Notes: generated by a model from the sequence alone, not told the origin. Counted from the first letter of the stretch, positions 16,426 through 56,673 are shown. The stretch: 64,000 nt of DNA from Promethearchaeota archaeon (GCA_030599585.1 JAUVNS010000006.1:160001-224000); one strand, 5' to 3'. Numbers and translations are program-made.

Positions 16426-16539
16426 CTAGTATTAGAAACGTTGTTTATCTTTTTTTCTCCAAACAAGTATAAAATTTTTATTTATCCTTTTTAATATTAA
16501 TAATAAAACATTGAAATATATCAAAGAGAAGATTAGAAA

Positions 16540-16743
16540 GTGGGATTTTTAGAAAAATTAAAGGTTTTGTTGCTGGCTTTAAGTAGCGTATTCGTTTTTA
16601 TAGCGATCGCCGGGACAATTATTGCAAATTCTTTCTCTGCTTGAGGTAGTAGAATGAGCTATTATGACGGAATCTCAGGTATGGGTTATATAATTTCTGC
16701 ATTTTTAGTTGTGCTCTATTTAATTATCCCTGATAGAAAATAA
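16540..16743 (+). CDS. 2-TM microprotein with in-frame TGA at 16642-16644 (candidate selenoprotein, or a nonsense pseudogene)
   Basis: From GTG: VGFLEKLKVLLLALSSVFVFIAIAGTIIANSFSA-TGA-GSRMSYYDGISGMGYIISAFLVVLYLIIPDRK-TAA. One TM lies on each side of the TGA, in the same frame. Confidence 0.5.
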
Positions 16744-16756
16744 TTATCTTTTATAG

Positions 16757-16793
16757 ATGAGTCCATTAAAAAAAATTATAGTTAATGGAGGAT
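16757..16793 (+). promoter_or_regulatory. Putative eukaryote-type SECIS element
   Basis: ATGA-G-TCCATTAA-[AAAAAATTATAG]-TTAATGGA-G-GAT: AUGA/GA core, perfect 8-bp stem and A-rich loop, 13 nt after the stop of the TGA-containing ORF. Confidence 0.45.
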
Positions 16794-16880
16794 ACTTCCC
16801 GCGAGGAAGAAGAAGATTTGAATAAATAAAATGGTATTTCTAGAGGAAATCCTCGGGTACTAGAGAATTTACTGGAAGTT

Positions 16881-18500
16881 TTAACTTTGCATTTTGTAGG
16901 CAGTTTTGCCCCTAATAATGGTTTCCACAACTTGAATATTTCTAATTTCATCATTTGGAACTTCCAGGGGATTCCTATTTAATATTACAAAATCAGCGAG
17001 TTTTCCTATTTCTATACTTCCCTTAATATTTTCTTCAAAAGCACCATAAGCGGCATTGATAGTATATGTTTTTAAAGCTTCCTCAATACTTATGCGTTGT
17101 TCAGGAATAAAATCGTTTCTATGAACTAGAGCATGCAATCCCATTATAACGCTAGGGTCTTCAACGGGACAATCAGAACCTGAGATTAAAGTAACTCCAG
17201 CATCTAATATTGATTTCATGGGATAAGTATCCTTAAGTCGTTCCTTTCCTAAACGTTTCTCTAACCAATTAAATTCTGAATTGATGAAGGGAGGCTGACA
17301 TGAGGCAATAATCTTGTATTTTGCCATATCTTTCAATACATCTTGAGTTAAAATTGAAGCGTGTTCTATCCGATGTCTATGATCCTCTCGAGGTGATTCA
17401 TCCAACAATCGTTTATAGAGATCTACTGCTATCCGATTTCCTTTATCACCGATCGCGTGAATACAAATTTGAAATTCATTATCATGAGCAACTTTCATCT
17501 TCTGGTACAAGTCTTCAGTATCAACGACACAGAAACCACATTTTTCAGGTGCATCCGTAAAAGGTTCATACATGCAAGCTGTCTTGGCCCCGAACGTACC
17601 GTCAAGGAAAAACTTTGCACAACCTAATTTAAACTGACTGTCTGGCTTACCACCATCAAGAGGAGGTTTTTTAAGTCTTAATAACTTCTTAGGTCTTTCT
17701 GTATTCACCATGAGATACCAGTTATGTAAGATATCTGACTGGATTGATTTTAATAACGGTATCTCGACAACTCCAAAATCTCCAAATTCTCCTCCAGCAT
17801 CGGAATGTAAAATCCCGTGGAGAGAGGTTAATCCTTGAGATGCTAGATAATTAAAGGCTTTAGTTGTTGCGTTTTTTAATTCTACTCCTTTAGGAAACGA
17901 AACTTTATTTAGTATAGGTGAGACCGCTGTTTCAGTCAAAATTCCTGTTAATTCTCCTTTCTCGTTTTTCCTAATTTCTCCCCCTTCAGGAACGGGAGTG
18001 TTTTCGTCTATTCCCGCAATATCCAAGGCTTTCGTATTAGCAATTCCAATATGCCCGTCATATCTCAGCACAAAGATAGGGTGTTCAGGACACGCATCAT
18101 CGAGATCCCATCGAGTAGGCAAAACAGGATCATCAAATTTCTCTTCGGATAAATTCAAAGCTATTGTTAATTGATCTTTTGATTTACTCTCAACTGCTTC
18201 CTTTAAAACTTCTTTCAACTCACTAAGACTTGTTACTTCAGACACATTTGGACTCACTTGGTAGAAAACGAATAATATGGGATGTAAATGACAATCGATA
18301 AACCCGGGCAACAAGCTATTCCCTTCTAAATCTACAGAAATATAACCTTGTCCTAACATTTCTTTTACTGTATTCAATTTTCCAGTAGATATGATCTTTT
18401 CATTTAATATACCTATGGCTTCTATGCGTGGTTCTTTTTCATTCATCGTTATGATGGGACCGTTGAAAAACAGTGTATAGACCTTTGGTTCAGGCGGCAT
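16881..18500 (-). CDS. Amidohydrolase family 3 (YtcJ-like) metal-dependent hydrolase
   Basis: Motifs PGFIDCHLH, KFFLDG, HAIGD, RHRIEH, GSDCP and GSIEIGKLADFVIL. Confidence 0.93.
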   Translation of the reverse strand: MPPEPKVYTLFFNGPIITMNEKEPRIEAIGILNEKIISTGKLNTVKEMLGQGYISVDLEGNSLLPGFIDCHLHPILFVFYQVSPNVSEVTSLSELKEVLKEAVESKSKDQLTIALNLSEEKFDDPVLPTRWDLDDACPEHPIFVLRYDGHIGIANTKALDIAGIDENTPVPEGGEIRKNEKGELTGILTETAVSPILNKVSFPKGVELKNATTKAFNYLASQGLTSLHGILHSDAGGEFGDFGVVEIPLLKSIQSDILHNWYLMVNTERPKKLLRLKKPPLDGGKPDSQFKLGCAKFFLDGTFGAKTACMYEPFTDAPEKCGFCVVDTEDLYQKMKVAHDNEFQICIHAIGDKGNRIAVDLYKRLLDESPREDHRHRIEHASILTQDVLKDMAKYKIIASCQPPFINSEFNWLEKRLGKERLKDTYPMKSILDAGVTLISGSDCPVEDPSVIMGLHALVHRNDFIPEQRISIEEALKTYTINAAYGAFEENIKGSIEIGKLADFVILNRNPLEVPNDEIRNIQVVETIIRGKTAYKMQS

Positions 18501-53835: not shown

Positions 53836-56673
53836 ATGGAAGTATTCTTAAAAAGAGCTGAAGGTTCTTTTAGAAAAAAAATAGGTGAAAACAAAACAAC
53901 CTCTATTTTAAACAATATAAAAAAATCTATCAACGAAATTCCAGCAAAATTCAGAAGAGTTTTTGCTTCAGAAATACCAAGATTCTTATTCACCTACTCA
54001 CAAGAGATTGAGGATGTATCACCAGCGATTACTCAGGGTGTTTTGATTCATATTTTCATATTTGCAGAGTCATTGAAATCTCTTGTTAATATGGATAGAA
54101 ATCAAGTAAATCATATGTTAATAAAAAGAAGTAATAGTTCAATGCGAAATCTTTCTGATTTATTAAATGCATTTGTCGAAAGAGCAAAAAATGGTGCTGA
54201 GATAGAGAATCTCGAAACATTTGAAGATTTATTGACATATATGGTTGGTGGAAATGCAGAGATAACTCAGTTAAGTGATGTTGAGTTGTTTATTAAGCGT
54301 GCTGAAAAAAATTTTTCAGAAAAATTAGGAGAAGATAAATCCCAAAAATACTCAGTAAAAATAAAGAAATCATTTGAAGAAATAGATGCATCTCATCGGG
54401 ATTATCTGAGCTCTGAAGTGTCAAAATATTTACTTACATTTTCACAACACCTTGATAGGTTATCGAATGAAACTTTAGAAGAAATATTAACTAATAGTTT
54501 AGTATTTTTAAGTTCAATAACAGATTTAGATGGAAAAAATAGAGATCAAATTAATCAAGAAATAAGAAAAAGAAGTGATAATGAAAGAGGATCTTTGCTA
54601 GATTTATTCAAAGCTTCTATTAAGGAAGCTAAAGAAAATAATTTATTAAATAATAGCAAAAATTTTAAAGATATTTTAACTTGTTTATTTGGAGAAGAGG
54701 AAGAACGTGTTCAATTTACAGATGTGGCAGCTTTTTTAAAAAGAACAGAAAAAAAGTATTCGCTTATTCTTGGACAAGATATGATTCGAATGCTTATGGA
54801 GGAACTATTAGATGCGTTTGATCAAATACCAGAACATCATAGAGCGTATCTTGGTTCGGATATAGCAAAATATTTATTTAAATATTCAGAAACAGCTTCA
54901 TATCATGAACCAGAAAAAGTTGAATTAGTATTTAATGGAGCTATCATGTTCGCCAATTCTTTAGTAGATATTGGTGATTTAAATAAAGCAGAGATTAATC
55001 AATTCATTATAAACAGATCTAATCATAAAATCCGTGGATTATTTGATTTATATCTAGCATTTCTGAAAAAAATTGAAATTCGTATGCCTTTTTCTTTAGT
55101 GCCCAATTTTGATGAAATTCTTGTTCATACGCTAGGGAGATATAGTGGTCCCAAAGATTTGGAACAAGGAGGGTTAATTCATGATTTATTGTCAGATCAT
55201 CATGAAGAAATTCCATTAGCGATCGAGCACTCAAATTGGGCTAAGGCTTTAATTGAAATAATCCCTCGTTATTTAGATATTCTTCCAAAGGCTGAAGGAG
55301 ATCGAGTATTAGACTTTTTATGGGAAAATAAATTTCCAGAGGAACAAATCGTCGAAAAATATAGATTAAAAATTTCTGAAATGCCAAGAGAAAAAGAAAA
55401 AAGATTCATGTTTAGATTAATGAATATGTTAACAAATCAAATTTTAATTGATATGGAGAAAGATAAAGTATTAGCAGGAGCTTTGGCTCTTAGAATCCTT
55501 GGAGGGATATTTGTAGAAATTTTTGGTGGACGGAATGCTCAAATAAGAGCAATTCGACTCAATCAATTATTAAAAGATAGAAAAGTTTCAAATATCGAAA
55601 ATAAGAAGAAAATTGATGAGCACATTAATAGAATACTTGAAGAAGATTTGAAGGCTATTCAAAAAAGAACTATGACAATAAACACTTTAATTCCTATATT
55701 AAGTAAAAAAAGATATTTTATTAAAACATACGATATCGTTACTAAAGATTTCCCAGAATTTATTGTAAAAATGATAACTGTTCGAGAGGAAGATAAGTTA
55801 AAGGATGTTGGTGATGAATATAAAAACCCAAGTGTTACAGGGGAGCTTATACCTCTTGTTAATAATTTTTTGATGGATCTTGATTTAGCAAGAAGATTTT
55901 ATAAAAAATATTTTGAAGAAATGTACAAAATAGCTTCTGATGCTCAAAAAAATATGTTATTTATTAGAAAATTCTTTAAATCATTAATAGAACTTAGTGA
56001 GAACATGGATGCTATTGAGTTTTTTGAAAGACCTATAGCAAATACAGAACATATAATTTATATTTCGTTATTAAAGTATTTGTTTGATTGTCTACCAGAG
56101 GTGTTTGAGATAACTCGAACCATTCTTGATGAACAAGAATATCAAAGAAGAATAATGAAATTAGATACTTATCTAAGTAATTGGAAATTAGAACAACTAA
56201 ATTTAGAAATTAGTGAAACTGAAAACAAAATTAAGGAATATGAAGGAATGGAAGAGTGGGATACAACAGATAAGTTAAGAAATTTAACTAAATTTCTTAA
56301 TCGGGATAAAAATGAGCTCAAATTCTATAAAATTATGTTTAAACTCCTTAATGAGATAGAGAAAAACGATAGAATTTTAAAAAAAAGATTAGATTTTTCG
56401 AAAAGTTTTTTGGAATATTCTAAATCATTAAAAAAGGTACATCCAAATCTTCCAGCAGCTTTACATGACTACTTAGAAAATTTTAATAATTTCACTATAG
56501 AAATAGATAAAATCATTGAAGAATTAAAAAAGAAAAGCACATCTGGTATTATCTCCCCTTTTGATTTTAGAGAGAGATATGAAATAGCAGAAATGTCAAA
56601 AAAAGAGTTATTATCCCTCTGTTCAAATGAAGATTTTATGAATCACATTAAATCCTTGTTGGAATTTCATTGA
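53836..56673 (+). CDS. Large helical hypothetical protein with three ~148-aa N-terminal repeats
   Basis: Repeats begin EVFLKRAE, ELFIKRAE and AAFLKRTE. Coiled-coil-like C-terminus. Confidence 0.8.
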   Translation: MEVFLKRAEGSFRKKIGENKTTSILNNIKKSINEIPAKFRRVFASEIPRFLFTYSQEIEDVSPAITQGVLIHIFIFAESLKSLVNMDRNQVNHMLIKRSNSSMRNLSDLLNAFVERAKNGAEIENLETFEDLLTYMVGGNAEITQLSDVELFIKRAEKNFSEKLGEDKSQKYSVKIKKSFEEIDASHRDYLSSEVSKYLLTFSQHLDRLSNETLEEILTNSLVFLSSITDLDGKNRDQINQEIRKRSDNERGSLLDLFKASIKEAKENNLLNNSKNFKDILTCLFGEEEERVQFTDVAAFLKRTEKKYSLILGQDMIRMLMEELLDAFDQIPEHHRAYLGSDIAKYLFKYSETASYHEPEKVELVFNGAIMFANSLVDIGDLNKAEINQFIINRSNHKIRGLFDLYLAFLKKIEIRMPFSLVPNFDEILVHTLGRYSGPKDLEQGGLIHDLLSDHHEEIPLAIEHSNWAKALIEIIPRYLDILPKAEGDRVLDFLWENKFPEEQIVEKYRLKISEMPREKEKRFMFRLMNMLTNQILIDMEKDKVLAGALALRILGGIFVEIFGGRNAQIRAIRLNQLLKDRKVSNIENKKKIDEHINRILEEDLKAIQKRTMTINTLIPILSKKRYFIKTYDIVTKDFPEFIVKMITVREEDKLKDVGDEYKNPSVTGELIPLVNNFLMDLDLARRFYKKYFEEMYKIASDAQKNMLFIRKFFKSLIELSENMDAIEFFERPIANTEHIIYISLLKYLFDCLPEVFEITRTILDEQEYQRRIMKLDTYLSNWKLEQLNLEISETENKIKEYEGMEEWDTTDKLRNLTKFLNRDKNELKFYKIMFKLLNEIEKNDRILKKRLDFSKSFLEYSKSLKKVHPNLPAALHDYLENFNNFTIEIDKIIEELKKKSTSGIISPFDFRERYEIAEMSKKELLSLCSNEDFMNHIKSLLEFH

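Follow-up and report, generated by a model that had tools for sequence, protein, structure and literature searches.

An in-frame TGA codon followed closely by a hairpin with an AUGA/GA core raises the question of whether the codon terminates a short peptide or is decoded as selenocysteine (Sec) within a longer protein. The locus lies in a window of 64,000 nucleotides (the whole stretch of DNA that was analysed) on contig 21 of the assembly of a Loki-type Asgard archaeon of the Promethearchaeia (G000; 4.85 Mb in 52 contigs). We conclude, with a probability of about 0.88, that the locus is a genuine SECIS-dependent selenoprotein gene, and that it belongs to a new, narrowly distributed family of two-helix membrane proteins. 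On the plus strand, positions 16540-16743 of the window comprise a GTG codon, 33 sense codons, TGA, 32 sense codons and TAA (67 codons and a stop), of which the ORF listing of the window shows just the 34-residue stump at 16540-16644. A 67-codon frame missed by the ORF track was what the initial annotation had described, and it proved exact to the base; all of the coordinates and distances given there were right when rechecked on the window sequence. The gene and the RNA element behind it are laid out as follows.

16468-16475, plus strand: putative archaeal TATA box, TATAAAAT, ~70 nt upstream of the GTG start
16540-16743, plus strand: coding sequence of the proposed 67-residue selenoprotein, with GTG start, Sec codon 35 and TAA at 16741-16743
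16642-16644, plus strand: in-frame TGA, proposed to be read as Sec (U35), motif A-U-G, at the tip of the predicted helical hairpin
16746-16752, plus strand: 5' strand of the SECIS lower helix, AUCUUUU, pairing with 16811-16817
16757-16792, plus strand: SECIS core, consisting of AUGA, G.G, 8-bp stem, 12-nt loop and GA
16757-16760, plus strand: AUGA, beginning 13 nt past the stop and 112 nt past the TGA
16761/16790, plus strand: G.G position above the core
16762-16769 with 16782-16789, plus strand: perfect 8-bp stem
16770-16781, plus strand: apical loop AAAAAATTATAG, 12 nt, A-rich and ending in AG
16791-16792, plus strand: GA of the 3' side of the core
16795-16809, plus strand: second hairpin of the SECIS, CUUCC-CGCGA-GGAAG, the third arm of the junction
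16811-16817, plus strand: 3' strand of the SECIS lower helix, AGAAGAU, pairing with 16746-16752

Translation gives ...ANSFSA-U-GSRMSYYDG... between two hydrophobic stretches, the layout that had been reported for the frame. The GTG start corresponds in the alignment to GTG or ATG in the orthologues and is preceded, at a distance of two codons, by a TAG. The putative TATA box suggests that the selenoprotein gene has its own promoter, and a TATAAA(A/G)T motif occurs at the matching place in the G002- and G024-type orthologues.

AlphaFold2, run with the family alignment and with Sec written as Cys, predicts a helix at residues 3-32, a loop at residues 33-39 that contains Sec35 and a second helix at residues 40-62, with a mean pLDDT of 89. 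On this model the product is a membrane hairpin of 67 residues with Sec in the turn. A Foldseek search of the PDB with the predicted hairpin returned generic helical hairpins only, with no match at E below 2, and the protein (P0001) has no Pfam family at E ≤ 0.01. Counts of K/R against D/E residues in 12 members of the family are 21:6 at the N-terminus, 12:15 in the loop and 18:16 at the C-terminus. Judged by these charges and the positive-inside rule, both termini would be cytoplasmic and the loop outside, and the A-U-G-x-R...F-D loop with its Sec probably lies at the outer face of the membrane.

The initial annotation had also drawn attention to an ATGAG..GGAT hairpin with a perfect 8-bp stem and an A-run in its loop, 13 nt past the stop and 112 nt past the UGA, and all of these properties were confirmed. 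A lower helix, which had not been seen there, does exist: it has 7 bp (16746-16752 with 16811-16817) and closes a three-way junction, which over its whole length (16746-16817) comprises the lower helix, the core stem and a second hairpin whose loop fits the family consensus YGCRA. As for the designation as a eukaryote-type SECIS, the AUGA/GA core stood, but the element as a whole is a lokiSECIS without a match to the eukaryotic Rfam SECIS families. A search of the whole window with Rfam at gathering score gave no match, and at E ≤ 10 positions 16640-16900 gave no SECIS family, only chance matches to Flavo-1 and a miRNA. With the eukaryotic SECIS (RF00031 and related models) the element shares the AUGA...GA core, possible U.U, G.A and A.G pairs (UGA opposite GAU), unpaired adenines in the loop and the location in the 3'-UTR, whereas its upper stem is shorter and an extra hairpin stands between the 3' strand of the core and the lower helix.

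Existing SECIS models gave no match to Loki elements (Mariotti et al. 2016, PMC4989117), for which the lokiSECIS was defined by AUGA, a stem of nine positions, a loop of ~11 nt that starts with A and ends in (A)G, and GA/AA (PMC4989117). Also termed the Asgard type I eSECIS-like element, it serves the HdrA-VhuD/FrhD, VhuU/FrhA and PrxL genes (PMC4989117; PMC11227280). The window element is a standard element of this Loki type. It has AUGA directly 5' of the main stem (16757-16760) and GA directly 3' of it (16791-16792), eight Watson-Crick pairs plus the G.G as the nine positions, and a loop, AAAAAAUUAUAG, that starts with A and ends in AG, and like the elements of HdrA-VhuD, VhuU and PrxL it lies just past the stop codon. 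It differs from the published elements in that the loop has 12 rather than 11 nt, one A more than the loop of its orthologues, and in that U rather than C follows the GA. The G-G pair above the core, which had been raised as a caveat, is there, but does not count against the element since the VhuU, HdrA and VhuD SECIS of the same genome are also mismatched at this position (A-C, A-G, A-A).

A pattern scan of the genome for AUGA, a 9-nt stem, an A-rich loop ending in G and GA/AA gave 14 matches, and 7/14 follow known selenoprotein genes, namely VhuU, HdrA, four VhuD and PrxL. These seven elements share a lower helix, 3-5 unpaired nucleotides, AUGA, a stem whose first position is often mismatched, an apical loop, GA/AA, a small GC-rich hairpin and the 3' strand of the lower helix. 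None of these parts is missing from the window element. All of those parsed (C20:52503, C20:389154, C24:310415, C24:250883, C26:120384, C26:75979 and C50:64939) are three-way junctions. The small GC-rich hairpin, whose loop is often YGCRA, stands between the 3' GA and the lower helix in the Loki-type SECIS of this genome, and is additional to the stem, internal loop and lower stem of the lokiSECIS as published. Lower helices and second hairpins were parsed by a script that is strict and misses helices visible by eye or with RNAfold, for example CCGAA/UUCGG in G019.

Since MAFFT misaligned the full-length SECIS elements, the covariance model built from this genome (R1) covers the core only. It is based on six SECIS (VhuU, HdrA, three VhuD and one PrxL) with the window element left out. 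Scoring the hairpin with a model of Loki SECIS had been put forward in the initial annotation as a check, and R1 gives it 27.9 bits, with E-values, by a rough calibration, of ~4e-4 in the window and ~0.02 in the 4.85-Mb genome. Among the 150 of 5954 first-look candidates that were scored, the element ranks 11th genome-wide, the next match having 20.5 bits, and 11/11 top matches sit just downstream of ORFs that contain a TGA, in the case of the window element 13 nt past the stop. A second R1 match in the window (54461-54521, 22 bits) was rejected as a chance match, as it falls within an ordinary ORF and fits the model only with an insertion of 16 nt. Elsewhere in the genome, a 40-bit SECIS at C26:110505-110550 (plus strand) stands behind a second Prx-like selenoprotein gene (FFRGNW-U-SHC) of a known family. 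A 36.7-bit SECIS at C26:252448-252494 stands behind a zinc-ribbon ORF (CxxC...CxxC) of 37 codons at C26:252301-252411 (plus strand; L037:2848-2958) that ends in ...RFK-TGA-TAG and may encode a protein with a C-terminal Sec.

Six-frame searches of relatives, with the read-through protein first and with family profiles next, yielded homologues that are 22-54% identical (alignment A7). At least 16 genes, distributed over 14 genomes of two genera in one family of the Promethearchaeia (Lokiarchaeia), have the TGA in one and the same alignment column. The Sec-type members are found in G000, G002, G031, G024, G019, G062, G065 and G018 of genus g1 and in G123, G141, G151, G109 (several copies), G101 and G115 of genus g28; 12/12 Sec-type rows of A7 have the TGA in this column, as have further members and two metagenome contigs. 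Nothing credible was found in other families among 400 sampled genomes of the phylum. The motif is (A/S/L/V/G)-U-(G/R/N), with Gly after Sec except in G115 (Arg) and in a divergent copy of G109 (Asn), and the Ala and Gly codons that flank the TGA vary synonymously (GCT/GCA, GGT/GGA/GGG). Three TGAs occur within six codons in G065 and G018, which read L-Q-(L/V)-U-G-U-G-G-U-Y-Y. In all members the frame stays open for ~30 codons past the TGA and insertions and deletions comprise whole codons; the UGA is conserved at one position, with coding sequence beyond it. The half that follows the TGA is better conserved than the half that precedes it (pN 0.17-0.25 versus 0.31-0.38). Among the codon positions the second is the least variable, which is what hydrophobic helices would predict, and dN/dS between close orthologues is near 1, a value that is uninformative for sequences so short and hydrophobic. 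From these comparisons, what appears to be under constraint is hydrophobicity, together with a few positions, and not the sequence as such.

The RNA element is conserved together with the codon. R1 gives 17.5-41.8 bits for the 15 other elements of the family and finds a match for every Sec-type gene that has its own 3' region. In an alignment of the 16 family elements, which was fitted to the model and hence favours pairing, the helix is 95.3% paired, compensatory changes on both sides are seen at 5/8 pairs and the covariation score is reached by 0/500 shuffles. Covariation is likewise seen in the lower helices (CCGA/UCGG, UCCAAG/CUUGGA, GCUCGA/UCGAGC and CCCGA/UCGGG), and the second hairpin is present in 15/16 family elements as well as in 7/7 parsed known SECIS of G000. 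The weakest element, that of G019 (17.5 bits), has AAAA/AAUG in place of AUGA, but its junction, loop and GA are retained. The AUGA of the G151 SECIS overlaps the stop codon, whose TGA supplies part of it, and in G141 the ORF runs into the stem because AUGA became AGGA. On the minus strand of G109:C99, at ~63600-65100 (L056/L088), a tandem array was observed that consists of three intact TM-U-TM genes, each with a SECIS; one of the intact copies is quite divergent (...PMLS-U-NIIY...), and one or two more copies seem to be frameshifted or to share a downstream SECIS. Homologues that keep the TGA together with a conserved SECIS had been named beforehand as support for Sec, and at least 16 genes in 14 genomes provide it.

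Some relatives lack Sec. Gly, encoded by GGA and one base from TGA, occupies the Sec column in G114 (L061:1489-1680) and GCA_022866525.1 (L091:528-725), which keep a nearly intact SECIS downstream with one stem mismatch each; either the loss is recent or the SECIS does something besides Sec insertion. The loop is deleted in G011, G035 and P0008. In G011, where the Sec loop is gone, AUGA is altered to ACGA and the element is no longer among the R1 matches, a coupled loss of codon and SECIS. Homologues without Sec or Cys at this codon, which the initial annotation had regarded as evidence against Sec, exist to the extent of these two Gly and three loop-deleted relatives, but at least 16 genes keep both TGA and SECIS, and the Gly and loop-deleted forms appear to have arisen by secondary loss and not to be ancestral. 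Sec is dispensable in some lineages, or the copies without Sec have changed or lost their function. No homologue with Cys at the Sec position was found in the 400 genomes of the phylum or in 1.84 billion protein representatives. Cys forms exist for most selenoprotein families but are not obligatory. The Sec-less relatives and the lack of a Cys form call for caution regarding the role of Sec.

The same relatives bear on the possibility that termination is regulated, such that UGA35 mostly acts as a stop codon and yields a 34-residue peptide with one helix, while read-through to 67 residues takes place only when selenium is plentiful and the gene operates as a switch. Such a switch would suit the N-terminal 34 residues, which are a complete hydrophobic helix alone, as well as the generally low efficiency of Sec insertion and the existence of Sec-less relatives. 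However, it is the half after the UGA that is better conserved, and in the relatives without the loop the two helices are still joined in one protein, so that the product which is conserved is the one with two helices. In addition, the three close UGAs of G065 and G018 would make for a pointlessly costly switch. Regulated termination is, in our assessment, improbable, and decoding of UGA35 as Sec in a two-helix protein is preferred.

Two separate small genes, a 34-residue ORF that ends at the TGA and a second ORF that begins with the ATG of codon 39 (MSYYDG...), would be consistent with the ATG or GTG that G019 and the four closest orthologues have at codon 39, and gene callers do emit such C-terminal fragments (P0009 and P0010). 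Yet no conserved start is present there in G062, G065, G018 and several g28 members, G-N/S-R between the TGA and codon 39 is conserved in frame, and the SECIS and the triple-TGA variants would be left unexplained, so that this division of the locus is very unlikely.

The profile search of the 1.84 billion protein representatives gave 11 matches, five of which (P0002, P0003, P0005, P0006 and P0011, from short metagenome contigs) have W at the Sec column. For P0003 and P0006, the two with readable DNA, this W is a TGA translated under a code in which TGA specifies Trp, and P0002 has a second W where the G062 orthologue has its terminal TGA. No TGG occurs at the Sec column among homologues with readable DNA, which disposes of the TGG to TGA nonsense mutation that the initial annotation had offered as a simple alternative. 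More generally, gene calling with TGA read as Trp can give rise to a spurious Trp at sites of this kind in metagenomic protein databases. A pseudogene would require that a sense codon, TGG or another, had turned into TGA by mutation and that the hairpin was some unrelated structure of the 3' region, for example a terminator. The W in database homologues and the absence of the gene from many congeneric genomes might be cited in favour of a pseudogene. It is scarcely credible given that W is TGA under the TGA=W code wherever the DNA is readable (P0002 having its second W at the stop TGA of G062), that at least 16 genes, 22-54% identical, retain the TGA and stay open beyond it, and that the hairpin both covaries and fits the model of the bona fide SECIS of the genome.

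Decoding of UGA as Sec requires dedicated machinery, whose presence in the genome had been listed as a further check, and tRNA-Sec, PSTK, SepSecS, a SelB-like factor and two Sec-containing SelD were all found. SepSecS scores 377 bits and each of the two SelD genes has one in-frame TGA. The SelB-like factor, 5 kb from SepSecS, scores 232 bits, which is below the curated cut-off of a model built mainly on bacterial sequences, and PSTK is full length at 155 bits, also below the curated cut-off of its model. The tRNA-Sec gene is located directly upstream of SepSecS (G000:C28:16776-16922, plus strand) and contains two introns, one of 28 nt after the anticodon loop position and one of 30 nt in the T-loop. 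The spliced tRNA is identical to the tRNA-Sec of a relative at 81/89 positions (64 bits), forms a 9/4 cloverleaf with a UCA anticodon and shows compensating changes in the acceptor stem relative to that tRNA. Because of its two introns, this gene was found only by blastn with the tRNA-Sec of the relative. RF01852 found no tRNA-Sec in the genome, just a tRNA-Leu at 30 bits; two pattern searches for tRNA-Sec found nothing; and ARAGORN gave nothing credible, its 'tRNA-SeC' with an intron of 1245 nt being rejected as not believable. In 5/14 congeners a tRNA-Sec scores above the Rfam cut-off. As RF01852 and ARAGORN both miss the intron-split gene, calls of 'no tRNA-Sec' in Asgard metagenome-assembled genomes can be false negatives.

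We propose that positions 16540-16743 represent a real gene in which the UGA at codon 35 is decoded as Sec, and that, by analogy to the known system, the 3'-UTR SECIS at 16746-16817 would recruit a SelB/EFSec-type elongation factor carrying Sec-tRNA(Sec). The SECIS is a three-way junction comprised of an AUGA/GA kink-turn core, the 8-bp stem, the A-rich loop, the second hairpin and the lower helix. The same decoding machinery would serve the VhuU, HdrA-VhuD, PrxL and SelD genes of the genome. The resulting hairpin protein would expose one selenol at the outer face of the membrane, or three in the U-G-U-G-G-U variants.

The gene lies between a gene for a 383-residue protein without assigned identity and a convergent amidohydrolase gene, with a dual-specificity phosphatase further upstream. 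Promoter, gene and SECIS form a cassette of ~430 bp, which was compared between genomes over window positions 16426-16880. Among genomes that share the flanking genes, some carry the cassette and five (L113-L116 and L118) have 25-35 nt between the flanks and no remnant, that is, the cassette is a clean presence/absence polymorphism between congeneric genomes. Other members have different neighbours, and no partner is conserved across genomes, the phosphatase, amidohydrolase, PPIase, methyltransferase, GH31, NosD-like and E2-like genes varying by genome. Since the neighbours differ and the cassette is cleanly present or absent, the gene is a self-contained unit and its context offers no functional clue.

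Five families of Loki selenoproteins were described by Mariotti et al. 2016 (PMC4989117), seven Asgard families were found by homology by Huang, Xiao & Zhang 2024 (PMC11227280), and a 2026 review lists 11 archaeal families, including SelD, FrhA/VhuU, FrhD/VhuD, HdrA, PrxL, AhpF-N-like, DsbA-like and FdhA (PMC13188914). Almost all published archaeal families are soluble redox enzymes or hydrogenase/Hdr enzymes that were found by homology (PMC11227280, PMC13188914), and none among them is a small membrane hairpin (PMC4989117, PMC11227280, PMC13188914). A full-text search for literature on Asgard transmembrane selenoproteins with SECIS returned nothing relevant. With the AlphaFold2 hairpin, and with a protein that has no Pfam match, the initial description of a tiny selenoprotein with two transmembrane helices, unlike the known archaeal redox-enzyme selenoproteins, was supported. 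The genes that carry lokiSECIS elements (HdrA-VhuD, VhuU and PrxL) share with the window gene the type of RNA element, as is reflected in its R1 score, whereas the window protein shows no similarity to any of the listed families and forms a membrane hairpin that contains a single Sec and lacks a nearby Cys as redox partner. The recoding mechanism is known; what is new is the protein, its membrane location, the variants with several Sec and the absence of Cys forms.

In the eukaryotic SELENOK and SELENOS a single helix is combined with a disordered cytosolic tail, in which Sec is adjacent to the C-terminus. The window protein resembles them in kind only, in being very small and membrane-anchored, in lacking a recognisable enzyme domain and in depending on a 3'-UTR kink-turn SECIS; it has two helices rather than one, its Sec is in the short connecting loop and probably outside, and there is no sequence similarity (no Pfam match). 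As to function, we tentatively suggest, and hold only weakly, that the exofacial selenol takes part in redox exchange or binds soft metals or chalcogens, perhaps as a small subunit or an oligomer. A broader and more speculative proposal is that Loki-type Asgard archaea might possess a hidden set of very small membrane selenoproteins, among them this distinct two-helix family, whose one to three outer-face selenols might capture or relay selenium, sulfur species or soft metals, and whose cassette of ~430 bp might be gained and lost cleanly between the same two neighbours and expand to tandem arrays. Eukaryote-like membrane mini-selenoproteins, SELENOK/S-like in kind, might then already be present in the archaeal relatives of eukaryotes.

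A membrane mini-protein without a Cys homologue escapes homology searches, and in gene calls it is truncated at the UGA. If confirmed, the family would extend the Asgard selenoproteome in a new direction, would show the need for searches that start from the SECIS and would raise the question of what role a selenol plays at the archaeal cell surface. It would also provide a compact natural UGA and SECIS cassette (~280 nt from the start codon to the end of the SECIS) with which Loki-type Sec insertion can be tested.

A second unannotated small membrane selenoprotein gene was observed in the same genome at C34:226586-226777 (plus strand; L038:2801-2992). It encodes one helix followed by EETGGG-U-PSTC, and its SECIS is at C34:226780-226825 (R1, 43 bits). 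The two families occur in the same lineage and genome, are about equal in size, are cut at the UGA by gene callers and have the same type of SECIS, but Sec follows a single helix (GGG-U-PSTC) in one and lies between two helices in the other, and kinship between them was rejected (hhalign probability 1%). Homologues of the one-helix gene are found in 27/135 genomes of the taxonomic family, with a single TGA in 27/27. Within the genus it is the commoner of the two, being present in 25/41 genomes, as compared with 8 Sec-type and 2 loop-deleted members of the two-helix family in 42.
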